Source: Spartobacteria bacterium
Lineage (GTDB): Bacteria > Verrucomicrobiota > Kiritimatiellia > RZYC01
NCBI GenBank assembly: GCA_009929845.1
Contig: RZZM01000020.1
Location: 1 to 28,442, forward strand
Length of the DNA: 28,442 bases
Direction of reading: 5' to 3'
Shown piece by piece: positions 1,464 through 26,339 of the stretch; the stretch's first letter is position 1, and the number at the start of each line of letters is the position of its first letter. A program made the position numbers and the translations under genes. The notes under the pieces are model-generated. The model searched no databases, was not told where the DNA came from, and worked only from the letters and a program-made list of their open reading frames with translations.

Positions 1464-1789
1464 CAGAAATCAAGCTCCTTCTCTTTTTCTTGATGTACAT
1501 GTTTTGGTTGGCGTTTTTTCTCTAAATAAATGCCTGTTTTATCTGCTTCCGGAGCGGCCAACCCTTCCAGTGTTTTCCATAAGTCAAGCACCCACATACA
1601 GCTTAGAAATATCCCCAGGGCAACACCGGTAGAACCTTGCTCTAATCGAGAAATTGTGCGCCGTTCAACCCCGGTACGGGTTGCCAGCTCCTCTTTGCTC
1701 CATCGCCGCCGTACGCGAGCGGTCTGTATGCGTTCACCAAGGATACGAAGTTGCTTGTTAACTTCCTCTGGATATTTATAATGTCCCAT
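1463..1789 (-). CDS. hipB: HipB-like XRE-family helix-turn-helix antitoxin
   Basis: 108-aa ORF with an HTH segment KEELATRTGVERRTISRLEQG. It lies immediately upstream of hipA and is translationally coupled to it. An AT-rich promoter region sits upstream. Confidence 0.75.
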   Translation of the reverse strand: MGHYKYPEEVNKQLRILGERIQTARVRRRWSKEELATRTGVERRTISRLEQGSTGVALGIFLSCMWVLDLWKTLEGLAAPEADKTGIYLEKKRQPKHVHQEKEKELDF

Positions 1790-2005: not shown

Positions 2006-3379
2006 TCATTGGAGCCCTTCGATTTTTCCTGCGCCCTTGACGATGAACCAGACGAGCAGAAAGACCATGACGATCATGGCGGAAACGAACAGCATCTTTG
2101 TCCACTGTCCACCGAGATGCCGTCCGGACTTGAACTTCGGATTGCGCTCTTGTTCGCCCAGCGCATACCGGGTGGTCTGGATCGTCGGAACCGACTTCAC
2201 AACGGCGCTCACGTCATACATCGGGGCGCGGATTTCCTCGCCGCCATAAAGCACCGTGTAGCGCGCCAGTGGGTCGGGCAGGAAGACCACCTCGTAGACC
2301 AGTCCGGTGGCGATGACGCTATCGATCGCGAGTGAGGCGTTGTCCTGGTTAAAGACGGTGACCCTGTACTGCGCGAACCGCCGTTCACCATTCAGCGCCG
2401 CGGTAAGGTTGTCGTCTCTGAGATTTCCGATTTCGAATTTGTGGAGCGTGGTATCGGCCAGATTGCGCCATTCAGGTTTCGGCCCGCCCGGCGCGCCCTC
2501 GATGCGGAAACGGCGGCTGAAATTGCGGCTCGGTGTATCGAAACTGAAAGAGACCAGGGGCTGGCGATCGCTTTGAAAGGTCCAGATGGTCGCCTGCCGT
2601 TTCTCATCCGGCGCCATCGTCAATGCGCCGATCTCGCAGGCCGTGCGGAATGGCTCATCCGGTCGCGCGACAATCTTCTTCGCCTTAAGTTCGATATCTT
2701 CGATATGGATCGATTCATCCCGCATCCGGCGCCGCTCGACCTCACTGAATATCTGCCCCTCCCGCTTATCCGTGGTCACTTCAAAATCGTCCGCCGATTT
2801 TTGCTCGGTGAAGTTCGCGATATCGATCCGGAAGAACTCGAAATCCTGCCTGGGAATCTCGATCCGCGTATTTCTTACGTTGATGAAGCGCGAGTAGTCG
2901 TATATTTCCACATCGCGCACGATCTCGACCCATTGCCCGGGGCTGTGTCCGCCGTACACGGAAACAAACTTCTCGAAATTCCGATTCCCGGTCTTGAGCA
3001 GGAGCGCCTCCGGCGCCTTTTCCCCCTCGCCTTTCTGTACGAGGATGCCGGCGATATTGTCGTCGTCCCGTTCAAAGTCGAGTATCCTGGATGAAATGGC
3101 CGATTCGACTATCTGTGTAACCGTGTGAACCTTCTTTCTTAAATAGAACGGCACTTCAGCCCCGTTTTCATCGATCAGGCGGACATTCGCATAGGACCCG
3201 TCGGTCGATGCATACATATCATTATCCAGCAGAAACGAGCCGACTTCCCCCACGGTTACGTCGGGCACTTGCAGTTCCTTCTGATACGGAAACCGCCTGA
3301 CATCGATACGCGCATACGCCATCGTGGTAAAAGCCGTCACCATCAGTCCGACAAAAAAGATACGTTTCAGACGGCTCAT
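2006..3379 (-). CDS. DUF3999-like exported/membrane-anchored protein (conserved partner of DUF2339)
   Basis: The in-frame ATG at 3379 gives 457 aa. The N-terminus MSRLKRIFFVGLMVTAFTTMAYA looks like a signal peptide, and the C-terminus has a TM helix MLFVSAMIVMVFLLVWFIV. The ATG overlaps the TGA of the upstream gene (ATGA coupling). The longer ORF-track start at 3598 runs into the upstream gene and is rejected. The family assignment comes from recalled architecture and neighbourhood, not from a search. Confidence 0.5.
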   Translation of the reverse strand: MSRLKRIFFVGLMVTAFTTMAYARIDVRRFPYQKELQVPDVTVGEVGSFLLDNDMYASTDGSYANVRLIDENGAEVPFYLRKKVHTVTQIVESAISSRILDFERDDDNIAGILVQKGEGEKAPEALLLKTGNRNFEKFVSVYGGHSPGQWVEIVRDVEIYDYSRFINVRNTRIEIPRQDFEFFRIDIANFTEQKSADDFEVTTDKREGQIFSEVERRRMRDESIHIEDIELKAKKIVARPDEPFRTACEIGALTMAPDEKRQATIWTFQSDRQPLVSFSFDTPSRNFSRRFRIEGAPGGPKPEWRNLADTTLHKFEIGNLRDDNLTAALNGERRFAQYRVTVFNQDNASLAIDSVIATGLVYEVVFLPDPLARYTVLYGGEEIRAPMYDVSAVVKSVPTIQTTRYALGEQERNPKFKSGRHLGGQWTKMLFVSAMIVMVFLLVWFIVKGAGKIEGLQ

Positions 3380-5787
3380 GAGTCCTCCTCCCGCGCAAAT
3401 TTCGGCGCCGCTTTCAGATAGGCGAACGCGCCTATCAGGAGTGCCACGCCAACGATCAGGAAGGCCACAACACGGTAGATGGCTAGCGTTCCCTCCAGGT
3501 CCACCAGGAACACCTTGCCGACTACAATGGCGAAAAGCGCCAGTCCCGCAAGTCGCAGGGGGCGCAGGTTCTTCCCTATGCCGCCTCCGACAAAGCAAAC
3601 GGCAAACAGCGCCCAGAGTACCGAGATCCCTCCCGCCTGGAACGCCGGAAGTTTCCAGTACAGGAAGGCATTCAGTTCCAGCGTGCTGTAGGCGAAGAGC
3701 ATGAACAATCCGCCATAGCCATAGAGAGGCGCCATGGCTTCACCCTCTTCACGGCGTCGGAGCAGATGCCAGGCCAGCAGGAGCATGAAGAGAACGACGC
3801 CGAAATCGAGCAGTCGGGCCATGACATACGCGGCCCCGTATTCGATGAGCAACACGCCATGCGCATTCGGCTGCCACGAATACAGGTCGATGAGGAATAT
3901 CTTGAGCGCCGCGAATCCGAGAAAGAAGCTGGCCGCCATCATGTTCAACCAATCATCCGTATGGATGTAGCGCATCAGGAAATAGGCCCCCATGGCGCAC
4001 CAGACGACCGTGAGCATCGGAAGGCGCCACGCCATGTGGAACTTGAAGAAGGCATTAACCTCCAACTGGAGATATACAAAAAGGATGATGATGCCGGCCC
4101 AGTAGAAGATGGCCCGGAGCAGACTCGGCCGACCGACAACGGCGTCTTCCTCCGTTTTCGCTTCCGTCAGCCTCCGCCGCTTCTCCAGAAAGAACGCGCA
4201 GAATACGGAGGCAATGCTCATCCCGAAGGTCCACAACCGGTCAGACATTTGCGAAAGATAAACCTTGTAGGTTCCCACCCCACCTGATCGTGGATTCGGG
4301 AAGTTGCGGTACATATCAATGGTAGCCAGTTTGAAAAACACGACCCCATAGAGGAAATACGACAGACTGCGCAGGAAAGGACTGCCCAACTTCCCGCTCA
4401 ACCAGAGGAATAAAAACGCCAACAGCGCCCAACTCATGGTGAGCGACTCTTTTTCCAATACCAGCGGCATCGTCAACGAGGTATAGAAGCCGGCCAGCGC
4501 AACCAGCGCGATCAGCAGGGTCCGATCCCCGCGTTTCGCCTTAAGAAACGCGAAGACATGAGCGATGAAGAACACCGCCAGCGCGGTGGTGAGTATGGAC
4601 GGCCACGGACGCCCGTGCGTATAACGGATCACGCCATAGGCCAACAGAGAGAAGATGAACGCATTGGCGACAAGATAAATGATCTCGAGGATCGTGACCT
4701 TCTCATCACGCGCCACGTTGTACCAGTACACGATGGACGTGTGCAGGGCGAACAGGAGCGACATCAGCGTGATGACGACAGGAAAGTCCGTCTTCTCGAA
4801 ACCAAACAGCGAGGCACAAATCATCAGCCACGTCAGCGCGAAGCCCAGATAATTCAAAAGGCGCCACGGTTTGAAATGCGAGAGGGCAAGAATGCCCCCG
4901 CCGAGTATAAAGAGGTAGGAATAGAGCACGAGGAAGTTTGCTTCGCCTGTGCTCAGCAGAATAGGGGTGCTGAAACCGCCAATGATGCCAAGGATCGCGA
5001 TCAACATGGAATCCGTGCGCACGGCCAGCAAACCTGCCGTAATCGTGATAAGGATCATCATCACAAAAGCCGACCAGATGGGGATCAGTTCGAACTGCGG
5101 CCCCGCCGCATACATGCTGTAGTAGAGGATAGCCAGGCCGCCTCCGATGAAGCCTTGCCCCATCAGGTGATACTTCTTCCCCAGCAGGCGATAGCCCCAT
5201 ATCAAGAGCCCCACACCCGCGATAATCGCCATACCGGTCCGTCCCATCGGCCCGATCAGATCACGCTCGATCGACCATTTGAGAAAATAGGCGACACACG
5301 CCACGATGACAATAATGCCGGCGCGAAGCAGCCATGTGCTCGCCACCGCGAACTCGACGCTGACGCCTTCCTTTCGGTACTCATCACCCACCAGAATCCA
5401 CTCCCAAATCCGCCCGAGAATTCCCGCGACCTTCGAAGGTTCCCGCGGCGCTTTTGCTGTGGATATTGCGGGTGCGGACGCGCGGGCCGTTTCCACATGG
5501 GGCTTCGGTTGAGTCGGGAGCGGCGGTGGCGCGACCACAGAAGGTCGCGCCGACTCATCCGACTTCATCGGCGCCGGCTCCTGCCAGACCTCCTTCATCT
5601 CTTCCCGCTCAGCGGCCGGGGATGGTTCTGCCGCTCTCGGGGTTGGCTGTGAAGCTATGATCTTCTTCAACTGATAGTTGAGCGATTTTTGATCGTTCTG
5701 CATCTCGTTGATCCGGCGCGCAATAGAAGAGAGCTGCAGCAGGGTAATGATCGCCAGCACCAACAGTATCGCGAGAAAGAGTTCCAT
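3376..5787 (-). CDS. DUF2339-like large polytopic membrane protein
   Basis: 803 aa. The N-terminus has a hydrophobic helix, a coiled-coil-like segment and a Pro-rich linker (PPPLPTQPKP), followed by more than 15 hydrophobic TM-like segments. GAGG lies 6 nt upstream of the ATG. The stop overlaps the start of the downstream DUF3999-like gene. Confidence 0.55.
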   Translation of the reverse strand: MELFLAILLVLAIITLLQLSSIARRINEMQNDQKSLNYQLKKIIASQPTPRAAEPSPAAEREEMKEVWQEPAPMKSDESARPSVVAPPPLPTQPKPHVETARASAPAISTAKAPREPSKVAGILGRIWEWILVGDEYRKEGVSVEFAVASTWLLRAGIIVIVACVAYFLKWSIERDLIGPMGRTGMAIIAGVGLLIWGYRLLGKKYHLMGQGFIGGGLAILYYSMYAAGPQFELIPIWSAFVMMILITITAGLLAVRTDSMLIAILGIIGGFSTPILLSTGEANFLVLYSYLFILGGGILALSHFKPWRLLNYLGFALTWLMICASLFGFEKTDFPVVITLMSLLFALHTSIVYWYNVARDEKVTILEIIYLVANAFIFSLLAYGVIRYTHGRPWPSILTTALAVFFIAHVFAFLKAKRGDRTLLIALVALAGFYTSLTMPLVLEKESLTMSWALLAFLFLWLSGKLGSPFLRSLSYFLYGVVFFKLATIDMYRNFPNPRSGGVGTYKVYLSQMSDRLWTFGMSIASVFCAFFLEKRRRLTEAKTEEDAVVGRPSLLRAIFYWAGIIILFVYLQLEVNAFFKFHMAWRLPMLTVVWCAMGAYFLMRYIHTDDWLNMMAASFFLGFAALKIFLIDLYSWQPNAHGVLLIEYGAAYVMARLLDFGVVLFMLLLAWHLLRRREEGEAMAPLYGYGGLFMLFAYSTLELNAFLYWKLPAFQAGGISVLWALFAVCFVGGGIGKNLRPLRLAGLALFAIVVGKVFLVDLEGTLAIYRVVAFLIVGVALLIGAFAYLKAAPKFAREEDS

Positions 5788-6092: not shown

Positions 6093-9017
6093 TTGGAAAC
6101 GCCCGTCCGTCAAACGACGGAAAGCATATACACGCTCTGTTTTGAGAATGCCACGACGGGGCTCACTGTGCGCGCATCCGCCAACGTGTACACCAATGGG
6201 CGCAGCCATAACGCCAACTATGACTATAACTTCAGCACCTACGTGCTGGACAGCGATTGGTCGGAAGAGATGTATCGCGACACCAACTTCACCGCTTCAT
6301 GTACGATCATCAGCAACGAGGCGCAACTGGCGCAGTTCGCCTGGCTGGTGAACAGCAGTAATACATTCGCGGGACAAACCATCACCCTGGTTGCGAATCT
6401 GAATGTTTCCGCCCATTACTGGATACCGGTCGGCGCCCCTTTAGCGCGTTTTAACGGGGCCTTCGATGGCGGCAGCCATACCATACACGGAATCGTTATT
6501 GCGGCCCCCGATGCGGATTATCAGGGGCTGTTTGGCTATGCGCATGGCGGAAGCATTCGCGACCTGACATTAGCAAATGTCGATATTGCCGGGCGGGACT
6601 ATGTTGGCGGCATGTGCGGTTTCTCGTGCGCGCGGCTGAACGGCATTTCGTCGGGGGGCTCCATCACAGGAAGAACGTATGTGGGTGGATTGGTCGGCAG
6701 GGCAGAAAGCAATATGGCGAATTGCGCAAACAGCAGTGTCGTTCAAGGGGGCGCCGCCGTGGGCGGCATCGTTGGCGAGATGACGGGGTCTCTGGAGGGC
6801 TGCGCCAATTCCGGGGCTGTCACCAGCGGGTGGAATGGAGGGGGACTTGCATCCGTCATGTTTGGCGGCGTTATTCAAAACTGCACCAACAGCGGAATAG
6901 TGAGCGGGAACTACATCGGCGGCATCGTCGGCGACCTGTCAGCGACCGGCATGGTTCAGCATTGCGTGAACAGCGGAACCCTTCAGGGTAGCGGCGCCTA
7001 CAGTGTGGCCGGGGGCATCGGGGTATCGGTGAAAGGCGATGTTCAGAACTGCGTCAACAGCGGAGCGATCAGCGGAAACAGCGCAGCGGGTATGGTCGCC
7101 TGGCCCGAGGGAACCATACAGGACTGCGTCAATAGCGGCGCAATCAGCGGGGTGCTCGATGAAGCCGAGCACTACAGCCATGCCGGAAGCATCGCGGCAG
7201 ATGTCTGGGATGGAACGATACAAAATTGCGCCAACAGTGGCCCCGTCAGCGGTGGCCATACCAACAGCCTGGTTGGCGGCATCGTGGGGTGGAACGAGCC
7301 CGTCTACGACGATGGGGAGGACTATTACCCTGGCGGAACGATTCAGAACTGCGCCAATAGTGGCGCCGTCAGTGGCTTGGGCCTACTGGGCGGACTGGTG
7401 GGAAAGAACGGCGGCACGATCTCCAACAGCTACTGGAAGCAAACCGGAATGGCGCCTTTTACGCTCGGCGCAACAGGCCAGAATGACGGCATCGTGACAA
7501 ACGCCCAGTCCTTTGCCGCGGCGCCCGGCACCCTGACCGCGCCTGTTGCAGCAGGCCATACAACAACCGACAAGCTCTCGGCGGCCTTGAACGCCTGGAT
7601 GCTCGAAGCTCGCCTCGCAGACACAGCGGCCTTGCGGCGCTGGACCGTCGGATCGGCCAGCGTCTATCCGACACTCATCGACAGCTTCTGGTCGGACGAA
7701 GGCAACTACACGACCAACTGGTACACGGCAGCGGAAACCAACTTCACCATCGGAACGCCGGAAGAACTGGCGGGACTTGCCGTCCTGGTGAATACGGGCA
7801 TCGACGACTTTGGCACAAAGCAGGTTACTCTTTCGGCGGACATTGAGCTGGGCAACCGCGAGTGGACCCCGGTTGGCTCTATGACTGGCGCATTCGGGGG
7901 GGATTTCAACGGCAATGGCAAAAAGGTATCCGGGGTCTATGTGGATACACCGAACGGGGAATTCGTGGGCCTATTTGGTGCGGTGGCTCACGGTCATGTC
8001 TTTAATCTCGCGATTCAGGACATCGATATTTCCGGCGTTTATGCCGGAGGTGTGGCCGGCGTTTCTTTTTTCGCGCAACTCATCAATAACTCGGTCTCCG
8101 GTTATATCGCCGGCGACTTCGCAGGCGGCGGGATCGTCGGCGTCTATGGCGCGGAAGCCACGGGCCTTGGTTTCATAGGCAACTGCTGGAGTGATGCCCT
8201 TGTTTCCGGCGATGTTTGCGCGGGAGGACTCTCGGGCTGCGACGGATGGATGGGCGAAAATACACCGGTAGGGTTCTTCAGCTATTGGAAGAACACGGGC
8301 GCAGCCCCCTACAATCTGCCCGGTGACGGAGGAAGCGGAGTTAACTCGTTCTGTTACTGTTTTGAGGAGCCCCCGGGGTTGCTGGACAGCGCTGGATCGC
8401 CGGCCCTGTCGGAATCTCTGAACAACTTCGTCATGAACGATCTCTACCCGGAACTATCCAGAGAACTGTACGGATGGACGGCAGGGTCCACCTCCAGCTA
8501 TCCCGTAATGATCCCGCTCATCCAAATCGATGGCGCCTACATCCCGCCGCAGACACTGGATGACAGCTTCATGGCCGGCATGGACCTGGCGGGGGTGGAT
8601 GCCACGGTATCTATCTTTACCAACGCGCATCCGGGTACCGATACGGCTTCTTTCGAGGCCCTGATGGAGCAAGCCGAAATGATGGGCGTTACATTTTACG
8701 AGCTGTCGGTGGACAATGCGGTTTTGGATTTTGAACCCACACTGGTCGTCACAGCCACCGACCCGTTCGCCTGGACGCTGGATTTTGCGGTCGGCAACGG
8801 CATCGATGAAACCGCGGTTGCGGCGATGAACCGCCTGGCGGCATCGAGATCCAAAACGTCAAGCGTTTTTCAATTTGATCTGTTGAGTGATGGCGAGACG
8901 CCCCTCCCTACCCTGGCTGAATATCACACCAACGGGACCGCCACGGTCTCCTTCACACCCGTTGCCCCGAACGACGTCATGGTTTTCAAGATGAAACTCA
9001 GCCATGAAAACGAGTAA
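6093..9017 (+). CDS. large GLUG-motif repeat protein (surface protein / adhesin-like), 974 aa
   Basis: Two copies of the module [LA.LVN.....G.T..L.A......W.P.G....F.G.FDG.GH.I.G] are present. Each copy is followed by many repeats of the form (I/V)QNC(A/V)NSG.(V/I)SG and G.VGGIVG, which is typical of GLUG-domain proteins. The first in-frame start is TTG at 6093. No N-terminal signal peptide is visible, so the true start is uncertain. Confidence 0.65.
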   Translation: METPVRQTTESIYTLCFENATTGLTVRASANVYTNGRSHNANYDYNFSTYVLDSDWSEEMYRDTNFTASCTIISNEAQLAQFAWLVNSSNTFAGQTITLVANLNVSAHYWIPVGAPLARFNGAFDGGSHTIHGIVIAAPDADYQGLFGYAHGGSIRDLTLANVDIAGRDYVGGMCGFSCARLNGISSGGSITGRTYVGGLVGRAESNMANCANSSVVQGGAAVGGIVGEMTGSLEGCANSGAVTSGWNGGGLASVMFGGVIQNCTNSGIVSGNYIGGIVGDLSATGMVQHCVNSGTLQGSGAYSVAGGIGVSVKGDVQNCVNSGAISGNSAAGMVAWPEGTIQDCVNSGAISGVLDEAEHYSHAGSIAADVWDGTIQNCANSGPVSGGHTNSLVGGIVGWNEPVYDDGEDYYPGGTIQNCANSGAVSGLGLLGGLVGKNGGTISNSYWKQTGMAPFTLGATGQNDGIVTNAQSFAAAPGTLTAPVAAGHTTTDKLSAALNAWMLEARLADTAALRRWTVGSASVYPTLIDSFWSDEGNYTTNWYTAAETNFTIGTPEELAGLAVLVNTGIDDFGTKQVTLSADIELGNREWTPVGSMTGAFGGDFNGNGKKVSGVYVDTPNGEFVGLFGAVAHGHVFNLAIQDIDISGVYAGGVAGVSFFAQLINNSVSGYIAGDFAGGGIVGVYGAEATGLGFIGNCWSDALVSGDVCAGGLSGCDGWMGENTPVGFFSYWKNTGAAPYNLPGDGGSGVNSFCYCFEEPPGLLDSAGSPALSESLNNFVMNDLYPELSRELYGWTAGSTSSYPVMIPLIQIDGAYIPPQTLDDSFMAGMDLAGVDATVSIFTNAHPGTDTASFEALMEQAEMMGVTFYELSVDNAVLDFEPTLVVTATDPFAWTLDFAVGNGIDETAVAAMNRLAASRSKTSSVFQFDLLSDGETPLPTLAEYHTNGTATVSFTPVAPNDVMVFKMKLSHENE

Positions 9018-9936: not shown

Positions 9937-14442
<4,506 letters not shown>

Positions 14443-14790: not shown

Positions 14791-15891
14791 ATGAAGCAAT
14801 TTGACACCATACTGCATCTCGCGAACGATACGGCGCTGCCCGATTATTTGATGATTAAACAGTTTGACTGTCCGCGGCACATCATGGCGGTCTCCCACGA
14901 CACCGAACCGGCCTTCAACCTTTTGCAGGGTGTGCTTGGCAAGGAGGGTTGCCACACGGAGAAACTGAATATTCCCGTGGACGATGTGAACACCTGTCGG
15001 CGCCGGCTGGAGAAGGTGGTGACCAGCCTGCCTGAAGGGCGGCACGCCGTCAATCTTACCGGCGGTTCCCGCGTCATGTTTGCCGCCCTTTTTGAGATCG
15101 CCCGGCGCCACGGGCTGCCCGCCGTGCTCCTCGATACCAAAGCAAAGGCCATGCACTGGCTGGATGAGGAGGGCCTCAGCGAACCGCTGCGTCCGGTATT
15201 CCGCGAGGCAACAGGGTTTATCCGCCTGGCCGGCTATGATGTGGACGCCGAGGCGCCAGCCGAACACCTGCGAGTGGCGAACGAACGCCGCGATGCCGCC
15301 ATGGCCTGCTGGCAATATCGCGACCACATCGGCATCTGGAGCAAATCCCTGCGCAACCAAGCCGCGAAACCCGGCCTGCCGTTCCGCGACGGCCCCCGGA
15401 AAATCAAGGGCGTGGAGGTCTCCGCCGTGCTCAAAAAAGAGTCGGACGGCAGCAAGGGCATCCTGCACATCGGCGAGCACGCCTTTACGCTCAAACCCTG
15501 GAAAGACCTGGCTTCATTCATCGCGGGGGGCTGGTACAGGGATGCCGTGCTGGCCAACCTCATGACCCTCAAACACAAGGGCGTCATTCTCGATGTGGCC
15601 CTCGGCGTCAACCCTTCCCCGTCGGCCAAAAACCCGAAGGGACATCTGCCCGCCATGGATATCCTTTATACCGACGGGATCAACCTGACTGTCGTGGATT
15701 GTTACCTGCGATGGAGCGACAACCGGGTCATCCGCCAGGTGGTCCGGCAGGTCCGGCAACTGGCCGGTGATTTTGGCCGCGGCATCCTGGCCGTCGCCTA
15801 TGAAAACGAAAAAGCCCCCCCGAAGAGCGGCCCCACCGTAACCATCCTTTCCGGTCCCGCCGCCGTCTCCCACCCGGAGCACTTTCTCTGA
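14791..15891 (+). CDS. CARF-domain protein with C-terminal DUF1887 / Card1-Can2-like nuclease-fold region (VC1899-like), 366 aa
   Basis: N-terminal Rossmann-like region with the CARF signature VNLTGGSRVMFAALFEIA (h-N-h-T-G-G-S/T-K/R). The C-terminal half has GGWYRDAVLANL (cf. the GxWxExxV helix of PD-(D/E)xK nucleases) followed by ILDVALGV and AMDILYTDG strands. No canonical ExK is visible. Alternative starts are TTG at 14755 and GTG at 14785. No strong SD. The family call rests on motif recognition only. Confidence 0.5.
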   Translation: MKQFDTILHLANDTALPDYLMIKQFDCPRHIMAVSHDTEPAFNLLQGVLGKEGCHTEKLNIPVDDVNTCRRRLEKVVTSLPEGRHAVNLTGGSRVMFAALFEIARRHGLPAVLLDTKAKAMHWLDEEGLSEPLRPVFREATGFIRLAGYDVDAEAPAEHLRVANERRDAAMACWQYRDHIGIWSKSLRNQAAKPGLPFRDGPRKIKGVEVSAVLKKESDGSKGILHIGEHAFTLKPWKDLASFIAGGWYRDAVLANLMTLKHKGVILDVALGVNPSPSAKNPKGHLPAMDILYTDGINLTVVDCYLRWSDNRVIRQVVRQVRQLAGDFGRGILAVAYENEKAPPKSGPTVTILSGPAAVSHPEHFL

Positions 15892-16132: not shown

Positions 16133-16816
16133 ATGGGTCTCATTCAACGTTTAAAGCGGATCACCTCCGCGCGCATTGAGTCATTTCTCAGTTCTGTCGA
16201 GGATCCGGAGGTATTGTTTCCTCAGTTAGTCAGGGAAATGGAAGACCAGGTTCGGGCGGCCACCGAAGCGGAGGCCAAGGCCAAGGCGGCGGTCAAGCAC
16301 GCGCAACGCGATGTGGATCAACTCCGGGAGAAGATCGAGTACTACGGTATCGGGGCGAAGAAGGCGATTGACGGCGGCGACGAGGGCATGGCGAGGGAAG
16401 CCATCAGCGCGCAGTTGAATGTCGAGGAAGCGCTGGAGCGGAAGCAGGCGGTCCTGGAACGGGCGGATGACGTGTATGAAGACGCGCGCAGCGCCCGCGA
16501 ACGTATTCAACGCCAGTTGGAAGAATTGCGCGCCAAGAAGGATGAAATCCTCACACGCGCCCGCGTGGCGAAAAACCAGCTCGAGATTCAACGGACGGTC
16601 AGCGGACCGGTCACGTCGTCGGGCAGCATCCTGGACGCGATCGAGCGGCTGGAGAGCCGGATCGAGGAACAGGAAGCGGAGCTGGAGATTCAGCAAGCGG
16701 CGTCGGGGGATGTGGACGCATCCCTGGACGAGCGGCTGGACGCGATGGCGGACACAACCGCCGTGGATGAACGCCTGGCCGCGTTGAAGCGCAAAATTGC
16801 TGAAGACAAGCAATAA
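16133..16816 (+). CDS. pspA: PspA/IM30 (Vipp1) family protein, paralogue 1 (227 aa)
   Basis: N-terminal amphipathic helix MGLIQRLKRITSARIESFLSSVEDPE is characteristic of PspA/IM30. The protein is a long coiled coil. AGGAAAG lies 7 nt upstream of the ATG. Confidence 0.9.
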   Translation: MGLIQRLKRITSARIESFLSSVEDPEVLFPQLVREMEDQVRAATEAEAKAKAAVKHAQRDVDQLREKIEYYGIGAKKAIDGGDEGMAREAISAQLNVEEALERKQAVLERADDVYEDARSARERIQRQLEELRAKKDEILTRARVAKNQLEIQRTVSGPVTSSGSILDAIERLESRIEEQEAELEIQQAASGDVDASLDERLDAMADTTAVDERLAALKRKIAEDKQ

Positions 16817-16921
16817 CCAGGCAGATTGGTCAGCGGGGGGATGGGCCCATGTTGTACCGGGCTCCTTCTCCCTGCCGGGAATGCATCCGTACGACGCTTA
16901 ACAACGGAAAGGTGGGATACC

Positions 16922-17593
16922 ATGTCTATTTTTGAACGCATACGAAGAATTACACTCGCCAACATCAACAGCCTGCTCGACAAGGCCGAGGACCCGGAAA
17001 CCATGCTCACGCAGAAGATCACCGAGCTGGAAGAGACCGTGCAGGAGGCCAAGGAGGCGCTGGCCGGATTCTCCGTTTCCTTTCGCAGGTCGGAAAATGA
17101 ATTCAACGCGCTGCGGCAGAAACGGGATGAATGGAAAGAACATGCCGTCCATGCCCTCAAAAACAATGATGAAGCGCAGGCGACAAAGGCGCTGCAGGAG
17201 AAGGTGAAAATCGAGCAGCGACTGGAGCGGCTGGAGCCCTCGCTGCGCGAGAGCCGGCATACCTTCGAGCAGTTGAAGGAGCAGTTGACACGTCTGCACG
17301 ATCAACTCAACGCAGCCCGGAATAAAATGGCGGAATTGAAATCCCGCCAACGTTCGGCAGCCGCGCAGCAGGCCTTCGGACGGAGCGTGGACCAGATGGC
17401 GGCCTCGGGGGTGCGGGGCGACGAATTCAACCAGATGGAAGACCAGGTCGCGCAGACCGAATCCCTCGTGGAAATCGAACGGGAAATGCGCGGCGATATC
17501 CTCACGGAACAGGATATGGAGGCCATGACACGCGACATGAAGGTCTCCAACGAACTCGAGGCCCTGAAAAAAGAGCTGGGCAGGCAGGAGTAA
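16922..17593 (+). CDS. pspA: PspA/IM30 family protein, paralogue 2 (223 aa)
   Basis: MSIFERIRRITLANINSLLDKAEDPE N-terminus. AGGTGG SD about 8 nt upstream of the ATG at 16922. The ORF-track start at 16826 lacks an RBS and would add a non-PspA leader. Confidence 0.9.
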   Translation: MSIFERIRRITLANINSLLDKAEDPETMLTQKITELEETVQEAKEALAGFSVSFRRSENEFNALRQKRDEWKEHAVHALKNNDEAQATKALQEKVKIEQRLERLEPSLRESRHTFEQLKEQLTRLHDQLNAARNKMAELKSRQRSAAAQQAFGRSVDQMAASGVRGDEFNQMEDQVAQTESLVEIEREMRGDILTEQDMEAMTRDMKVSNELEALKKELGRQE

Positions 17594-17598
17594 CGATT

Positions 17599-18246
17599 GT
17601 GGGTTTAACGGCCAGGCTCAAGCAGGTGACCAAGGCGCGTGTCGAGGCGTTTCTCGACCGGGCCGAGGACCCCGCGACCGTGTTCCCGCGGCTCGTGAAC
17701 GAGCTGGGCGCCCAGATTCAGGCCCTGAAACACGCGGAGGCCAAGGCGATGTCGGCAGTAAAATCCGCCCAACGAAAACTGGATGAAGTTTCCGGCCGGG
17801 AGGCCCGCCTGGAAAAAGGCGCTGAACTGGCGCTGAAGCTGGGTGATGAGCAGACGGCCCGGGAGGCCCTGACGGTGCAGGTGAAACTTGCCGGCGTGAA
17901 AACCGAACGGGCCCGGGCAGTCGAACAGGCCGAAAAAGACCATGAAGAGGCCCTGCGCACGCGACTGCGCATGGAGGCCTTGTTGGAGGACCTGAAATCA
18001 CGCGCGGGTGAGTATGCCTGCGAGGTTGATTTCACCCGGGCGTTGCCTCATAATCGCCGTCAACAGCGCACACAGGTGTCGCTGCTTGACGCGGTTGCGC
18101 GCATGGAAGGGCGCCTCGATGAGGTCGATGAAGGCTATACGCAGCGCATGGCGCAAAGCGGGCTTACGCTGGAACGGAAGCTTCGGCTGATGGAACGGCA
18201 GCGGATTGTCGAGCAGCGTCTTCAGGCGTTGAAACAGGGTTGTTGA
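17599..18246 (+). CDS. pspA: PspA/IM30 family protein, paralogue 3 (215 aa), GTG start
   Basis: MGLTARLKQVTKARVEAFLDRAEDP N-terminus. GTG start with AGGAG 8 nt upstream, overlapping the stop of paralogue 2 (5-nt gap). Confidence 0.85.
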   Translation: MGLTARLKQVTKARVEAFLDRAEDPATVFPRLVNELGAQIQALKHAEAKAMSAVKSAQRKLDEVSGREARLEKGAELALKLGDEQTAREALTVQVKLAGVKTERARAVEQAEKDHEEALRTRLRMEALLEDLKSRAGEYACEVDFTRALPHNRRQQRTQVSLLDAVARMEGRLDEVDEGYTQRMAQSGLTLERKLRLMERQRIVEQRLQALKQGC

Positions 18247-18293
18247 GTGGTTGGGTTTACCTGCCGGAAGCCGGCAGTAAGGAGTGTAGAGGT

Positions 18294-18965
18294 ATGGAAG
18301 CATTAACAGACTTTTTGTCGGCCTGTGTGGCTATGATCAATCTGCCGTATACGATTCTTTTCCTGGCGATGATCATGTATTGGGTGGCGGTCATTGTCGG
18401 CGCCATGGACCTGGATCTACTGGAGTTTGATATTCCGGTGGATGCGGATGTGGGGTCGGCGCTGGATGCGGATGTGGATGGCGATGTCGATATCGCGGGG
18501 GATGGGTTTCTCCGGTCCCTGCTGCAGTATCTTAATGTTGGCGAAGTGCCGGTTACCATCATTCTGAGTATCTTCATTATCAGTTTATGGGCAATCGCCA
18601 TCGTCGCGAATTATTATCTGAATCCCATGCGGTCGGTGCTGCTGTCGTTTGCGATTTTTGTGCCCAATGTGATTATCAGCATACACATGGCGAAATTCTT
18701 CACCATGCCGCTGGTCAAGGTGTTCAAATCATTGAATGAGGGCGCGGAAGACCCGGGCAGGGATTTGAGCGGGAAAGTGTGTGTGGTGAAGACAAGTGAA
18801 GCAAACGGGACATTTGGCCAGGCGGAGATCAAGACAAAGGGGGTCCCGGTCCTGGTGAATGTGCGGACAGACAACGGCGAGGTTTTGAAAAAAGGAACGG
18901 AAGCCGTGGTGGTGGAAAAGGCAGACAAGGGTGTATATATCATAAGCAAACTGGACTTGGAATAA
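18294..18965 (+). CDS. NfeD-like (YqiJ-like) membrane protein with C-terminal OB-fold beta domain
   Basis: 223 aa from the ATG at 18294 (AGGAG 8 nt upstream). Three or four TM segments (ILFLAMIMYWVAVIVGA, VTIILSIFIISLWAIAIV, LLSFAIFVPNVIISI) with an acidic loop DADVGSALDADVDGDVD. The C-terminal soluble domain is GKVCVVKTSEANGTFGQAEIKTKGVPVLVNVRTDNGEVLKKGTEAVVVEK. It is positioned directly upstream of a flotillin gene, as in yqiJK-type pairs. Confidence 0.7.
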   Translation: MEALTDFLSACVAMINLPYTILFLAMIMYWVAVIVGAMDLDLLEFDIPVDADVGSALDADVDGDVDIAGDGFLRSLLQYLNVGEVPVTIILSIFIISLWAIAIVANYYLNPMRSVLLSFAIFVPNVIISIHMAKFFTMPLVKVFKSLNEGAEDPGRDLSGKVCVVKTSEANGTFGQAEIKTKGVPVLVNVRTDNGEVLKKGTEAVVVEKADKGVYIISKLDLE

Positions 18966-20974: not shown

Positions 20975-21022
20975 GGTGATAGACGCGTGGGACCGCAGTC
21001 ACATCTAAAGAACAGAGATACG

Positions 21023-21048
21023 GAAGGGGCGCGGGCGCGTCCCTTCCG
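21023..21048 (+). other. GC-rich stem-loop in the flotillin/AAA+ intergenic spacer
   Basis: ggaaggggcgcg gg cgcgtcccttcc forms an 11-12 bp stem (one G-U) with no following U-tract, 20 nt before the ATG at 21069. Confidence 0.4.
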
Positions 21049-21068
21049 GAAACTACCGGGGTCGTCGT

Positions 21069-24000
21069 ATGGCTGAGCAATCAAAAAAGAATCCTGAACA
21101 GGCGATTGATACGCCGGAGCATGAAAAAACACAATTGGATGCGGGCGCGTATGAGATTATTCGCAAACGCCTGGCCGGGCATGGCCAGGCGCTGGGGGCG
21201 CGCCTGGAGCAACTCGACGCGGAGCGCAAACGGGTTTTCGGGTCCATTGAGACCAGCCTGGTCAACACGGTAAAAATCCCAACCGAGAACAACTGCATCC
21301 CCCGCGACATGATGGCCCTGGGGGAGGTGGTGCTCTTCGGCTACAATGTGCATATCGGATTGCGCAGCGAGGTCTACCTGAATGATGTTTTCGCGGTGTA
21401 CACCTTCGCGGATAACGCCTTCCAGTCGCGTTCGCTGGACGTGATTGCCGATGAGCGCTTCGAGGCCGATTTCAAGGACCTCTATCGCTACTACAAGAAA
21501 ACGCGGTTCGCGAAATTTGCGCGCATAGGCGCGTACATGTACATGGTATTCCAGATTGGCAGCGACGATCGGGATATTAAGGCGTTCAAGTGGCATGTCG
21601 ATGACGCCGGGACGCTGACCTATGTGGACAACCGGTCTGACCACGAGGTGAAATTTCCGCCGCAACACGAGTTTACCTGGGTGCGCACCCACCGGGATAT
21701 GCAGCGCGACGGGGTGAATCCGCATGTCTCCATCAATGATGTGATTTTCGTGGAAACCGTCGGCGGCGACCTCACCGTCAAGATTGAGGACAACACCGAC
21801 ACCGGCGAAGGCATCTACAGCGAGCCCGTGGATGATCCGGACCAGGTGCTGGATGACGCGGATATTTTTTATGCTGACCTGGGCAGTTTGATTCTGCTGA
21901 AGATACGCCCTTATCAGGAGCAGCGCTACCGCTATCTCGTGTACAGCCGCAAGATGCAGCAGGTCACCCGCATCGATACCATCGAGGATTCCTGCGTGCT
22001 GCTGCCCAACGAACACGGCATTATCTTCTCCAATGGCTACTATCTCCAGAGCGGCGAGCACAAGGAATATGAAAGCGACCTGCTCAACATGCTCTTTGAA
22101 AAAAAGGTGGCCTCGCCCAACGGCGAGGATGTGCTGTATGTCTTTTACAACCAGGCCAGCGGAACCTATGAGCTGCTCTCGTATAATGTGATTCGCCAGC
22201 GCATCGAAACGCCTATGGTCTGCCACGGTTATTGCCTGTTCGACAACGGGAAACTGATCTATTTCAAGGCCGGGGACAATCCCGTCAAGACCCATACGGT
22301 CCAGATTTGGCAGACCCCGTACATCGAGGATGAGCACGAAATCAATGCCGACAAAAATTCGTATCTTTTCAAGATCGGCAACAGCGATATTGTTCGTTGC
22401 ATGGCCGCCTGCCGGGCGGTCATCAACCTGGCGAACCGCGAGGATTCCTACGAAAACCTGTACCTCGACCTGGTCAAGCAGACGACGGAGACGATGGATA
22501 CCTTCTTCTGGCTCGATCATGCGGAGGTTTTCAACCTCAAGGAATGCATGGTGGGCATCCATGACGCCGCCTCGGCGGCGATGGATGAATTCGAGAAGGT
22601 CCTGAACCTGAAAAAGAACAGCCGTGAGCAGGTCGCCGCCGTGGCCGAAAAATGCAAAAAGATATTGGCGGCCGCGCAGACGGCGCACTTCAAGGTGATT
22701 GATGAATTCGTCACCCTGTTGAGCGAAATGCGGACCCTTCGCGGCGAGATCATCGCGTTGCGGGATCTGCGGTACGTGGATGAGGCGCGCCTGGAAGAAC
22801 TTGAAGAGGCGGTCACTTCAGAAACCGAAAAGGTTGCGCGTCACTGCGTGGAATTTTTGCTTAAACCCGAGGCCCTTCATCCCTACCAGGAGCGCGTTGC
22901 GGAGATTCAGCAGCAGGTGGCCAAGGTCGGCAAAGTGGCCGACGCCAAAAAGATTGATGAAGCGGTGGCGTCCGCCGCCGGTGAGCTGGAAATGCTGATT
23001 GATGTGGTCAGCAACCTGAACATCGAAGATGCCACGCAGCGAACGGATATCATCGACGGGATTTCCGCCATTTTTTCCTCGTTGAACCGCGTGCGCAGCG
23101 CCCTCAAGAACCGCATGAAAGAGCTGGCCTCGGTGGAAGGCATTGCCGAATTTGCCTCGCGGGTCAAACTGCTGGACCAGGCGGTTATCAATTACCTGGA
23201 TGTATGCGATAGCGCCGATAAGTGCGAAGAATACCTGGGCAAGGTGATGCTCCAGCTCGAAGAACTGGAGGGGGCCTTTGCCGATTATGATGAATTTGTC
23301 GAACAGTTGGCCGAAAAACGCGAGGAGATCTACAACACGTTTGAAACGCGCCGCCTGAAGCTGGTGGAGGAGCGCAACCGCCGAACGGATACCCTCATGC
23401 GCAGCGCCGAGCGTATGCTCAAGGGCATCCGGACACGCGCGGAAGGCATGGACAGCAACGAGGCCATTCACGCCTATTTTGCGTCGGACCTGATGGTGGA
23501 CAAAGTGCGCAATGTCATCCGGCAGTTGACGGAACTCAATGACACGGTCAAGGCCGGGGATATCCAGGCCCAACTGAAGACGATCCGGGAAAACGCGGTT
23601 CGGCAGTTGAAGGATAAACAGGAACTCTTCCTGGACGGCCAGAATGTCATTGCCTTTGGCCGCCACCATTTCTCCGTCAACACACAGACGCTGGATTTGA
23701 CCACCGTACTGCGCGGCGAGGCGATGTACCTGCATCTGACCGGAACGGATTTCTTTGAAGAGATCACGGAGGACACCTTCCTGGCGACCCGCGACGCGTG
23801 GCGGCAGGATGTGGTTTCGGAAACCGCGGCGGTCTACCGGGGCGAATACCTGGCGTACCTTTTATTCCAGGCCGCGCAGGCGGTCGGCGCCGATCCGTCC
23901 CTGGCGGCGTTGGCGGCGTTTTCGGAGGAGGAGAGCCTGGCCTATGTGCGCGGGTACATGGGCCCACGATTCAGCGAGGGCTACATCAAGGGCGTGACGG

Positions 24001-26339
24001 ACGGGGACGCGGTGAAGATACTGCAGGCGGTCCTGTCCCTGCATACAAGCCTGGGGTTGCTGCGGTTCCGCGCGAAGGCCCGCGCCCTGGCCGTGGTGTT
24101 CTGGCGGCAATGCCCGGAGGACGGGGACAGACAACTGCTGCTGGGCAAGCTCTCGGGCTTCGGCAAACTGTTGCGTGTGTTCCCGGAGGAGCCGCGCCAA
24201 CGCGAGTATATTATCGAGCTGACCGAACGAATATCCGCCTTTGCAAAACGGTACAATACCCTGTTTGATGAGGAGGACGCGCGGGAAGCCGGCGAGTATC
24301 TTTTTGCGGTGCTGACCGGGGACGGACAGCATCCAGTCAGCCGGGAAGCCGCCGATATCCATACGGGCTTCATCGGCATGCTGAAAAAAGCGAATGCCGA
24401 AAAGGAATTTCGGCAGGCCCGCGAAGAGGTGGCCGACGATCCATGTTCAGCCTACTCGGTCATTCGTGACTGGGTGGAGGCCTTTTTGAACCAGGATGCC
24501 GGGGCGTGCGACCCGGGGTATCGCGATGAAGCGGCCGCCCTGTTTTTTTCCGGTGACTATGATGTCAAGCGGGTGATTGATGTGCCCGCCCGGCGCGACC
24601 TGGCGGATATGGCCGGGGAACACCCCCTGATCGCAAAGGGGCTTTACGTGTTCAACTATCATGATTTCATGAGGCGGTTGCATCATCATCAGACCGTCGT
24701 TGTGCCGATGTACGAACAATACCAGGACATGAAGAAGGCCTGGCTCGTGCGTGAACGCGAGGCCATGCGACTGGCTGAATTCATGCCGCGGGTGTTGACC
24801 TCCTTTGTGCGCAACCAGTTGTTGGACCGGGTCTATCTTCCGTTGGTGGGGGACAATCTGGCCAAACAGATTGGCGTGGTCGGCGAGGAAACCCGAACCG
24901 ATCGTATGGGGCTGCTCATGCTGATTTCACCGCCGGGCTACGGCAAAACAACACTGATGGAATATATCGCCAACCGGCTGGGGCTGGTCTTCATGAAAAT
25001 CAACGGTCCGGCCATCGGATGCCATGTGACCTCCCTGGATCCGGAGGAAGCGCCAAATGCCGCCGCGCGCGAGGAATTGAAGAAGCTGAACCTGTCCCTT
25101 GAGATGGGGGATAACGTGATGCTGTATGTCGATGATATCCAGCATTGCAATCCGGAGTTTTTGCAGAAATTTATTTCGTTGTGCGACGCACAGCGGAAGA
25201 TCGAGGGCGTGTACAAGGGCCGTTCCAGCACCTATGACCTGCGCGGGAAGACTGTGGCCGTGGTGATGGCCGGCAACCCTTACACGGAGAGCGGCGAAAT
25301 GTTCAAGGTCCCGGACATGCTGGCCAACCGCGCCGACACCTACAACCTGGGCGATATCATCGGCGACAATGCGGACGCCTTCAAGCTCAGCTACATTGAA
25401 AATGCGCTGACCTCTAATCCGGTGACCAACCGCCTGGCGGCCCGCAGCCGGGATGACATCTACGCCATGATCCGGCTGGCGGAAACCGGGTCCAGGGAAG
25501 GCATCGATTTCGAGGGCAATTATACCGTCGAGGAAACCAACGAGTATGCCTCCGTCATCAAAAAGATATTGCGCATACGCGATGTCGTGCTGACCATGAA
25601 CATGGCCTATATCCATTCCGCCGCTCAGGCGGATGAATTCAGGACGGAGCCGGCGTTCAAACTGCAGGGGTCCTACCGCAACATGAACCGCATGGCCGAA
25701 AAGGTGCAGGCCATCATGAATGACCGTGAACTTGAAACCATGATCTTTTCGCACTATGAAAATGAAGCGCAAACCCTGACCACCGGCGCGGAAGCGAATC
25801 TACTGAAATTCAAAGAGCTGTTGAATATCATGAGCGAGGAGGAAAAGGCCCGCTGGGCGGATATCAAGCGCACCTTTGGACGCAACCAGTTATTCCGCGG
25901 TGTGGAAGGGGACGACAAACTCGGGCAGGTCATTGTGCAGTTGAGCACCTTCCGCGAAGGACTGGAGGATATCGGCAAAGCCCTCTCCGGGTTGGCCGAA
26001 CCGCGCAAGGGCATTACTTCGCTGGATGGGGTGGTCGAAACGCGGCTGGCGCCCGAAACCCTCCAGGCGTTGTCATCCGCATTCGGCGGCCTTAGGGAGT
26101 CTGTCGCCGGGATGAAAGAGGAACTGTCGCGAGCCGCGGAGCAAAAACCGGGCATTGATCCGGAACTCATAAAAATGCTCGAACAACAATTTTCCCGGAT
26201 GCAGGGATGGCTGGACCCCAAGGAAGTCGCCCTGAAAGGCACGATTGAGGAAGTGGAAATACTGCGGCACCGCATGAAAGATGCCGCGGAGAACTATCAC
26301 TATCTGCTTGAGCAGCTTGGACGGGGCGGAGTACGCTAA
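21069..26339 (+). CDS. very large (1756 aa) multidomain protein with a single MoxR/AAA_5-like AAA+ ATPase module and long coiled coils
   Basis: Walker A LISPPGYGKTT (about nt 24930-24953). Walker B VMLYVDDIQH (about nt 25116-25145). Sensor-1 and downstream motif VAVVMAGNPYTESGEMFKVPDMLANRAD resemble the MoxR/AAA_5 pattern NP...G...LPxAxxDRF. The N-terminal roughly 470 aa is beta-rich with unknown fold. aa about 480-1000 is predicted coiled coil. No TM segments. Confidence 0.8.
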   Translation: MAEQSKKNPEQAIDTPEHEKTQLDAGAYEIIRKRLAGHGQALGARLEQLDAERKRVFGSIETSLVNTVKIPTENNCIPRDMMALGEVVLFGYNVHIGLRSEVYLNDVFAVYTFADNAFQSRSLDVIADERFEADFKDLYRYYKKTRFAKFARIGAYMYMVFQIGSDDRDIKAFKWHVDDAGTLTYVDNRSDHEVKFPPQHEFTWVRTHRDMQRDGVNPHVSINDVIFVETVGGDLTVKIEDNTDTGEGIYSEPVDDPDQVLDDADIFYADLGSLILLKIRPYQEQRYRYLVYSRKMQQVTRIDTIEDSCVLLPNEHGIIFSNGYYLQSGEHKEYESDLLNMLFEKKVASPNGEDVLYVFYNQASGTYELLSYNVIRQRIETPMVCHGYCLFDNGKLIYFKAGDNPVKTHTVQIWQTPYIEDEHEINADKNSYLFKIGNSDIVRCMAACRAVINLANREDSYENLYLDLVKQTTETMDTFFWLDHAEVFNLKECMVGIHDAASAAMDEFEKVLNLKKNSREQVAAVAEKCKKILAAAQTAHFKVIDEFVTLLSEMRTLRGEIIALRDLRYVDEARLEELEEAVTSETEKVARHCVEFLLKPEALHPYQERVAEIQQQVAKVGKVADAKKIDEAVASAAGELEMLIDVVSNLNIEDATQRTDIIDGISAIFSSLNRVRSALKNRMKELASVEGIAEFASRVKLLDQAVINYLDVCDSADKCEEYLGKVMLQLEELEGAFADYDEFVEQLAEKREEIYNTFETRRLKLVEERNRRTDTLMRSAERMLKGIRTRAEGMDSNEAIHAYFASDLMVDKVRNVIRQLTELNDTVKAGDIQAQLKTIRENAVRQLKDKQELFLDGQNVIAFGRHHFSVNTQTLDLTTVLRGEAMYLHLTGTDFFEEITEDTFLATRDAWRQDVVSETAAVYRGEYLAYLLFQAAQAVGADPSLAALAAFSEEESLAYVRGYMGPRFSEGYIKGVTDGDAVKILQAVLSLHTSLGLLRFRAKARALAVVFWRQCPEDGDRQLLLGKLSGFGKLLRVFPEEPRQREYIIELTERISAFAKRYNTLFDEEDAREAGEYLFAVLTGDGQHPVSREAADIHTGFIGMLKKANAEKEFRQAREEVADDPCSAYSVIRDWVEAFLNQDAGACDPGYRDEAAALFFSGDYDVKRVIDVPARRDLADMAGEHPLIAKGLYVFNYHDFMRRLHHHQTVVVPMYEQYQDMKKAWLVREREAMRLAEFMPRVLTSFVRNQLLDRVYLPLVGDNLAKQIGVVGEETRTDRMGLLMLISPPGYGKTTLMEYIANRLGLVFMKINGPAIGCHVTSLDPEEAPNAAAREELKKLNLSLEMGDNVMLYVDDIQHCNPEFLQKFISLCDAQRKIEGVYKGRSSTYDLRGKTVAVVMAGNPYTESGEMFKVPDMLANRADTYNLGDIIGDNADAFKLSYIENALTSNPVTNRLAARSRDDIYAMIRLAETGSREGIDFEGNYTVEETNEYASVIKKILRIRDVVLTMNMAYIHSAAQADEFRTEPAFKLQGSYRNMNRMAEKVQAIMNDRELETMIFSHYENEAQTLTTGAEANLLKFKELLNIMSEEEKARWADIKRTFGRNQLFRGVEGDDKLGQVIVQLSTFREGLEDIGKALSGLAEPRKGITSLDGVVETRLAPETLQALSSAFGGLRESVAGMKEELSRAAEQKPGIDPELIKMLEQQFSRMQGWLDPKEVALKGTIEEVEILRHRMKDAAENYHYLLEQLGRGGVR

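Follow-up and report, generated by a model that had tools for sequence, protein, structure and literature searches.

A flotillin-linked DUF3686-type AAA+ ATPase as a candidate remodeller of bacterial membrane scaffolds

A large ATPase encoded together with flotillin and PspA has been described by Ravi et al. (mSystems, 2024; PMC11237479), who reported a "Betapropeller+Coiled-coil+AAA-ATPase" protein in CesT/Tir-PspA-YqiJ-flotillin operons, with Dokdonia donghaensis as the example, found shorter flotillin-YqiJ(-ATPase) operons to be more widespread and proposed a role like that of a chaperone in building membrane-linked complexes. Links between SPFH proteins, ESCRT-III and AAA ATPases have been described in archaea, together with an SPFH-ESCRT link in Bacillus subtilis (Makarova et al. 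2024; PMC10936438), and according to a further report B. subtilis PspA depends on an SPFH protein for its recruitment to the membrane (PMC8581546). A 2025 review (PMC7619361) notes the apparent lack of any Vps4-like ATPase in bacteria, which leaves open how PspA/Vipp1 polymers are regulated. Here we analysed a stretch of 28,442 nucleotides from a Spartobacteria bacterium (contig RZZM01000020.1, positions 1 to 28,442 of the forward strand; hereafter the window), in which a gene for a 1,756-residue ATPase (21069..26339, plus strand) follows a flotillin gene. As the gene for this ATPase is almost always found right after a flotillin gene, its product is probably an ATP-driven partner of flotillin/PspA scaffolds. 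Our favoured reading, to which we give about an even chance, is that the protein uses ATP to remodel assemblies of flotillin (and PspA) and is the soluble subunit of a YqiJ/flotillin/ATPase module.

Synteny was quantified in 80 related species loci, whose neighbours were identified by tblastn and iterative hidden Markov model searches of all open reading frames (ORFs). Flotillin and YqiJ were counted over the 64 loci whose upstream sequence reaches 3 kb or more. Of these, 61 have a flotillin homologue as the immediate upstream gene, on the same strand, and 55 have a YqiJ homologue upstream; the three without flotillin (L019, L024 and L038) carry the ATPase with neither a flotillin nor a YqiJ gene nearby. 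PspA was found upstream in 17 of 61 loci and downstream in 4 of 68. Judged from these gene orders, co-oriented linkage of the ATPase to flotillin and YqiJ is near-obligate, while PspA has been recruited repeatedly and independently. Because PspA adjoins the ATPase in only about a third of the loci, we regard it as an accessory partner and flotillin as the core one; the expectation that orthologues always lie beside PspA or flotillin genes thus holds well for flotillin and only in part for PspA. The flotillin and ATPase genes often lie about 100 bp apart, and two Clostridia loci show a 4-bp overlap of the pair. All-against-all clustering of the 80 loci revealed no other widely conserved neighbour, save a family of ORFs of about 141 codons upstream of PspA in 15 loci; the corresponding 155-residue Hymenobacter gene product is a CesT_Tir_1 protein.

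The position of PspA varies: it occurs with CesT/Tir in Bacteroidota, in three copies in Pontiella and the window, and downstream of the ATPase in Phycisphaerae. The complete arrangement of three PspA genes, YqiJ, flotillin and ATPase recurs in Pontiella desulfatans. Pairing of flotillin and ATPase is also kept in distant homologues at 35-40% identity, namely those on the Pseudomonas fluorescens SBW25 plasmid pQBR103 (YjfI-PspA-rhomboid-YjfK-YjfL-YjfM-YjfC-(hypothetical)-SPFH-"DNA repair ATPase"; L083) and on a Streptomyces plasmid (hypothetical-flotillin-"DNA repair ATPase"; L084).

Several of these loci have further features of their own. The ten-gene pQBR103 cluster (positions 1-13190 of L083) merges a yjfIJKLMC-type PspA/polyamine operon, with a rhomboid protease, and a hypothetical-SPFH-ATPase set, uniting two operon classes that Ravi et al. 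gave separately. In Hymenobacter metallilatus (L034, 9344-9901) and similar Bacteroidota loci, a DUF559/restriction-endonuclease-like gene (E 1.2e-33) lies between flotillin and ATPase, which accounts for the flotillin-ATPase gaps of 0.6-0.9 kb in these genomes. In a 60%-identical relative (P0003; L085/L086, 15335-19212), a gene encoding Schlafen/AlbA_2 and HATPase_c_4 domains begins 1 bp after the ATPase gene and is followed by a gene for an 882-residue protein that matches no family; no PspA gene is nearby in these two stretches.

The operon in the window has the order PspA-PspA-PspA-YqiJ_N membrane protein-flotillin-ATPase, all on the plus strand:

16133..16816, plus strand: first operon gene, PspA/IM30 paralogue 1, 227 residues (Pfam PspA_IM30, E 2.7e-30)
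16826..17593, plus strand: PspA/IM30 paralogue 2, 255 residues from a TTG start; the public call begins at 16922 and gives 223 residues (Pfam PspA_IM30, E 1.6e-36)
17599..18246, plus strand: PspA/IM30 paralogue 3, 215 residues (Pfam PspA_IM30, E 6.3e-11)
18240..18965, plus strand: YqiJ/YuaF (short NfeD)-like membrane protein (Pfam YqiJ_N, E 1.9e-5); the public call is 18294-18965, 223 residues
18992..20974, plus strand: flotillin, a YqiK-type SPFH protein of 660 residues (BLASTP to Escherichia coli YqiK)
21021..21048, plus strand: 12-bp G+C-rich hairpin in the flotillin-ATPase spacer (sequence and centroid fold), lacking a U tract
21069..26339, plus strand: DUF3686-DUF7902-AAA+ protein, named "DNA repair ATPase" at NCBI, 1,756 residues from an ATG start

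Flavobacterial and Hymenobacter loci in our set show the same genes as the operon of Ravi et al. (CesT_Tir_1, PspA), indicating that the two studies concern the same family. The window differs from that operon in having no CesT/Tir gene and three tandem PspA paralogues instead. The Dokdonia protein is equated with the present family by its description and its operon. PMC11237479 gives no structure, ATPase class or experiment. An earlier note on this DNA had pointed out the flotillin neighbour and suggested PspA or flotillin lattices as partners; the link within the operon had already appeared in print in 2024 and is therefore no new finding. What the present analysis adds is the class of the ATPase, domain models, quantified synteny and the three-PspA variant of the operon.

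The flotillin assignment made in the earlier note is confirmed by the match to E. coli YqiK (29% identity over 438 residues, E 2e-46), and the YqiJ-like protein matches E. coli YqiJ (BLASTP, E 1e-5). The flotillin comprises an N-terminal transmembrane helix, the SPFH domain, a helical region rich in E, A and K, and a conserved C-terminal region. Searches of Pfam (including Band_7/Flot), NCBIfam and PDB sequences with the 660-residue protein returned nothing usable, and Pfam Band_7/Flot and NCBIfam miss the ATPase-linked flotillins generally, though these are clearly homologous to YqiK. The nearest relative of the window flotillin, at 68% identity, is in a Kiritimatiellota genome, which makes an origin of the window in Kiritimatiellota probable. 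Among ATPase-linked flotillins, the C-terminal region (residues 481-570 in the window protein), which lies outside the portion aligning with YqiK, is conserved as well as the SPFH domain, and these proteins are longer than YqiK (median 695 versus 553 residues); on sequence grounds they may form a distinct flotillin subfamily.

Both the 94-bp spacer described between the flotillin and ATPase genes (20975-21068) and its hairpin are present. The fold of the whole spacer is not exceptional (z -1.48), and the hairpin is not a canonical terminator because it has no U tract; the terminator scan did not list it as terminator-like. Matches in a sigma-54 promoter search were rarer than expected by chance, with none upstream of the operon, and promoter and terminator scans found nothing convincing at the operon boundaries.

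The 1,756-residue reading frame is real: M1 is invariant among homologues. Pfam assigns residues 42-480 to DUF3686 (PF12458; 620.7 bits against a cut-off of 25, E 1.6e-186, profile positions 2-448 of 448), residues 601-685 to DUF7902 (PF25472; 100.5 bits against a cut-off of 26, E 6e-29) and residues 1283-1406 to AAA_5, the last as a marginal pass (22.7 bits against a gathering score of 22; profile positions 2-125 of 139). Most of the protein had been thought to belong to no recognised family, which these matches to a large annotated family contradict; the family is annotated but not well characterised, and literature searches gave no experimental backing for its name. NCBIfam and PADLOC scans of the protein gave nothing beyond weak P-loop matches, with no significant PADLOC match.

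A word-indexed search with the whole protein returned 5,656 homologues (cluster representatives at 90% identity). In the best 120 of these, at least 91% of the length aligns with 52-100% identity, and where names are given they read "DNA repair ATPase", "MoxR-like ATPase" or hypothetical. Colinear full-length homologues occur in Pontiella, Gimesia, Symmachiella and Sulfidibacter (52-60% identity over 91-100% of the length), and distant ones, at 35-41% identity over at least 84% of the length, in Pseudomonas, Streptomyces, Deinococcus, Proteus and Vibrio, with members also in Halomonas and Nonomuraea at 35-41% identity; individual distant members include those of plasmid pQBR103, Proteus mirabilis, Vibrio campbellii and Streptomyces. 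An alignment-based scan of a species-genome collection examined 600 candidate stretches and confirmed a DUF3686-type ATPase in at least 568 of them, from Planctomycetota, Verrucomicrobiota, Kiritimatiellota, Bacteroidota, Desulfobacterota, Clostridia and Omnitrophota; the same scan with the single 1,756-residue protein as query, unlike the alignment query, gave no confirmed locus. By sequence, the DUF3686 ATPases are thus a widespread and strongly conserved bacterial family. A further lead comes from Pseudomonas aeruginosa, whose bac cluster (YjfI-like, PspA-like, short NfeD and SPFH genes) has biofilm and virulence phenotypes; its neighbour PA3728, listed as "ATPase" and recurrently mutated in cystic fibrosis isolates, is probably a homologue.

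The nucleotide-binding part of the protein resolves as follows:

24816..25409, plus strand: AAA+ alpha/beta core, residues 1250-1447 (AlphaFold model and sequence motifs)
24936-24953, plus strand: Walker A, GYGKTT, residues 1290-1295 (sequence)
25122-25145, plus strand: Walker B, LYVDDIQH, residues 1352-1359, with DD (sequence)
25266-25280, plus strand: sensor 1, N1403 (sequence)
25311-25337, plus strand: arginine R1421 (sequence)
25419..25928, plus strand: lid and post-lid helices, residues 1451-1620 (AlphaFold model)
25665-25691, plus strand: candidate sensor-2 motif, QGSYRNMNR, residues 1533-1541 (invariant in homologues)

GYGKTT, YVDDIQHCNPEFLQKF, MAGNP(x)10PDMLANR and QGSYRNMNR are all invariant across homologues and stand in a MoxR-type sequence context, the MAGNP...PDMLANRAD segment falling at residues 1400-1423. 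The three motifs on which a MoxR/AAA_5-like ATPase had been called (GYGKTT, LYVDDIQH and NP...PDMLANRAD) are therefore present and unchanged from Actinomycetota to the PVC group. That call stands with caveats: Walker B in DUF3686-type ATPases has an invariant DD rather than the usual DE, no helix-2 insert hairpin is evident, there is no VWA partner, and the AAA+ module (residues 1250-1620) sits behind an extension of about 1,240 residues, whereas typical MoxR proteins are stand-alone and about 250-500 residues long. In the AlphaFold model, a pre-sensor-1 beta-hairpin of invariant residues (strands 1377-1382 and 1385-1390) lies between helix 3 and strand 4, and the place between beta2 and helix 2 is taken by an invariant 18-residue loop with a short helix (residues 1313-1330), with no insert hairpin. 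Extreme purifying selection acts on the nucleotide site, on the loop that follows beta2 and on the pre-sensor-1 hairpin.

The solved structures closest to the module are the MoxR ATPases CbbQ (6l1q) and NorQ (9qh4), followed by dynein and midasin. Sequence and model together place one motif-intact MoxR/dynein-class AAA+ module in each chain. Sequence identity to CbbQ and NorQ is 12-15%, and the window protein is about six times larger than either, the difference including its N-terminal extension; it departs from them also in the Walker B DD and in the helix-2 insert hairpin, which is not evident in its model. CbbQ and NorQ have VWA/MIDAS partners (CbbO and NorD), whereas none is encoded near the window ATPase: no VWA domain was matched in any operon gene or among the conserved neighbours of the 80 loci. 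Dynein and midasin concatenate six AAA modules against the single one per chain here, and the protein lacks a MIDAS as well as a microtubule-binding domain. When the PDB sequences were searched with the full-length protein or an AAA-region profile, the result was a likeness of about 35 residues around Walker A and beta2 to p97, Cdc48 and RuvB, uninformative for class. Searching residues 1151-1756 against 1.8 billion cluster representatives returned 990 clusters, 390 of them at E ≤1e-30, essentially all from the DUF3686-type family, and this search contained no relatives of the module with other informative architectures; the ATPase module is therefore best regarded as a distinct lineage.

The structural kinship to CbbQ and NorQ, which remodel client complexes, bears on an alternative in which flotillin and YqiJ are the platform, and the ATPase extracts, unfolds or chaperones client membrane proteins in the microdomain, as FtsH does inside HflK/C or as a MoxR chaperone does in maturing a complex, without acting on flotillin or PspA polymers. 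The chaperone-like proposal of Ravi et al. points in the same direction, as does a report that staphylococcal flotillin microdomains confine and stabilise unfolded proteins (PMC11222466), and the synteny data fit this alternative equally well. Yet the protein has no protease domain, transmembrane anchor or VWA adaptor, no client gene is conserved in the neighbourhoods of the 80 loci, and the repeated independent recruitment of PspA argues for a function at the level of the scaffold. We consider a client-directed machine rather unlikely, while keeping it as a serious contender.

Beyond the ATPase module, AlphaFold models were available for the N-terminal part (mean predicted local distance difference test score, pLDDT, 85) and for residues 860-1756 (pLDDT 81), with residues 520-860 outside both. 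They, together with sequence features, give the following architecture:

21117..21239, plus strand: N-terminal helix, residues 17-57, packed on helices 432-519 (AlphaFold model)
21255..22313, plus strand: beta-rich domain, residues 63-415, about seven four-stranded sheets in a propeller-like arrangement, the core of DUF3686 (AlphaFold model)
22362..23648, plus strand: helical stalk, residues 432-860, containing DUF7902 at 601-685 (AlphaFold helices 432-519, heptad scan, low Pro/Gly)
23649..24788, plus strand: middle region, residues 861-1240, comprising a small beta unit at 861-898, the all-alpha domain at about 924-1161, a beta pair, and a long helix at 1197-1233
25929..26336, plus strand: helical C-terminal tail, residues 1621-1756, poorly conserved (pLDDT about 36-68), with a heptad-like segment at 1719-1752

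The N-terminal part is thus beta-rich, as the earlier note had read it, and the predicted lack of transmembrane helices is borne out by a maximum Kyte-Doolittle 19-residue mean of 1.18. Its coiled coil of about 500 residues has to be trimmed: the helical region is real and spans about 430 residues (432-860), but about half of it, at residues 496-546, 606-637, 707-792 and 807-853, is heptad-like in a crude scan, and its start (432-519) is modelled as a bundle with the N-terminal helix. The region is poor in Pro and Gly; its modelled part ends at residue 519, so a continuous coiled coil would be putative. The middle region preceding the ATPase is modelled as the small beta unit and about 12 helices, and Foldseek with the C-terminal model found no structural match for its all-alpha domain. 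Across a set comprising Streptomyces, Pseudomonas, Bacteroidota, Clostridia and the window protein, identity is 67-82% in the AAA core, 42-56% in the propeller, 29-53% in the stalk and middle region, and 10-32% in the tail.

This architecture also bears on the database name, which would make the protein a true DNA-repair ATPase, for example an SMC/Rad50-like coiled-coil enzyme. The names that favour such a role are inherited (Pfam DUF3686 "ATPase involved in DNA repair", NCBI "DNA repair ATPase"). SMC, Rad50 and RecN proteins have an ABC head split by a coiled coil, whereas here the N-terminus is propeller-like and the sole P-loop lies in a single C-terminal MoxR/dynein-class AAA+ module, with no SMC_N or AAA_23-type match. 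Pfam found no DNA-binding or nuclease domain, membrane-scaffold genes adjoin in about 95% of loci with no repair gene conserved nearby, and literature searches returned no paper that names DUF3686 or PF12458, links the family or the term "DNA repair ATPase" to repair or to flotillin, or studies a DUF3686-type ATPase experimentally. We therefore regard a role in DNA repair as very improbable, and the name is probably misleading.

Returning to the favoured reading of an ATP-driven remodeller, the YqiJ/NfeD-like membrane protein, the YqiK-type flotillin and the soluble ATPase subunit would make up a three-gene membrane module, to which the window lineage would have added three upstream genes for PspA, the bacterial ESCRT-III. 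The AAA+ modules would oligomerise into a ring, and the propeller head and stalk would dock on the cytoplasmic flotillin assembly, possibly at the conserved C-terminal region of flotillin. ATP hydrolysis would then remodel the flotillin assembly, which might be opened, taken apart or recycled, and, where PspA is present, PspA polymers at the same membrane patch might be remodelled too. Such a mode of action would resemble that of Vps4 on ESCRT-III, or of the AAA+ partners of other SPFH cages, with an ATPase of an unrelated class. The earlier note had gone as far as a scaffold or motor that engages PspA or flotillin lattices: the genetic link to flotillin behind that idea is very strong and the link to PspA partial, while engagement of the lattices is something we infer.

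The proposed analogy with Vps4/CdvC is functional. As in those systems, an AAA+ ATPase is encoded with genes of the ESCRT-III superfamily (three PspA genes in the window operon, about a third of loci family-wide), and SPFH proteins join such loci in some archaea (PMC10936438). In contrast to Vps4 and CdvC, the window ATPase has no N-terminal MIT domain and no classical-clade AAA cassette. The pairing of an SPFH-family scaffold with an AAA+ machine also recalls FtsH with HflK/C (PMC12330512). Unlike FtsH, the window ATPase has no transmembrane anchor and no M41 protease domain (no peptidase family match), and its partner is a YqiK-type flotillin. Such a flotillin has its bulk in the cytoplasm, in contrast to the HflK/C cage, which lies in the periplasm.

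Several points weigh against this reading. ATPases of the MoxR class usually work by way of VWA partners and not by threading polymers, and no VWA gene is found among the operon genes or conserved neighbours. With DD in place of DE in Walker B, ATP may be hydrolysed slowly or in a regulatory role. About two-thirds of the loci have no PspA, and in 3 of 64 (for example L019) flotillin itself is missing from the vicinity of the ATPase. Because the 80 loci are the closest relatives (47-55% identity), the figure of about 95% for flotillin leans towards a single part of the family. The strongly conserved propeller could bind a partner other than flotillin. Finally, remodelling, ring formation and docking are suggested by architecture, conservation and synteny, that is, by genes and models.

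The plasmid-borne members raise the alternative that flotillin and ATPase form a mobile stress or anti-phage system, with the ATPase as sensor or effector of membrane protection or abortive infection. PspA was first discovered as a phage-induced protein. The family occurs on megaplasmids (pQBR103 and plasmids of Streptomyces, Deinococcus and Hymenobacter), and its patchy cross-phylum spread with unusually high identity, together with the presence on plasmids, suggests horizontal transfer. A gene for a Can2/Card1-like CARF nuclease stands immediately upstream of the operon in the window, and the Schlafen/AlbA_2 ATPase gene directly follows the ATPase gene in one relative. Such defence-like neighbours nevertheless change from locus to locus, none being conserved across the 80 loci, and PADLOC had no significant match for the ATPase, the flotillin or YqiJ, so a conflict or defence module appears improbable.

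The remaining genes of the window provide further context. The CARF gene (14791-15891, plus strand; 366 residues) has a PADLOC match to CARF4--CARF_PDDEXK (E 1.2e-37) and a weak PDB match to Can2 (7bdv, E 0.044), with no Pfam or NCBIfam match; the window showed no cas genes, and by sequence it appears to encode an orphan Can2/Card1-like cyclic-oligoadenylate effector nuclease. Divergent from it and from the psp-flotillin genes is a gene for a 1,501-residue hybrid histidine kinase (9937-14442, minus strand; dCache_3, PAS, GAF, PAS, HisKA, HATPase_c, two receiver domains and Hpt), which could regulate the psp-flotillin operon. Further upstream, a 974-residue ORF (6093-9017, plus strand) has no match in Pfam, NCBIfam or PADLOC and lies beside a gene on the opposite strand for a DUF2339 membrane protein (3376-5787). 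A HipA-like kinase gene (228-1463, minus strand; HipA_C, E 1e-48) and an adjacent gene for a small helix-turn-helix protein (1463-1789, minus strand) form a HipBA-type toxin-antitoxin pair in a stretch of lower GC content (0.48 against about 0.57 elsewhere).

Taken as a whole, the DUF3686-type family is a strong candidate for the ATP-driven component of bacterial flotillin/ESCRT-III membrane machinery, and it has members in tractable organisms, namely P. fluorescens SBW25(pQBR103), Proteus mirabilis, Vibrio campbellii and Streptomyces. A bolder proposal, which we put forward tentatively, is that the protein is the bacterial functional counterpart of Vps4, a ring-forming MoxR/dynein-class ATPase that would dock on flotillin cages by its propeller and stalk and would disassemble or recycle flotillin and PspA/ESCRT-III polymers in membrane repair. 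If true, bacteria would have evolved a machine combining SPFH, ESCRT-III and AAA+ proteins out of a class of ATPases that is not related to Vps4.

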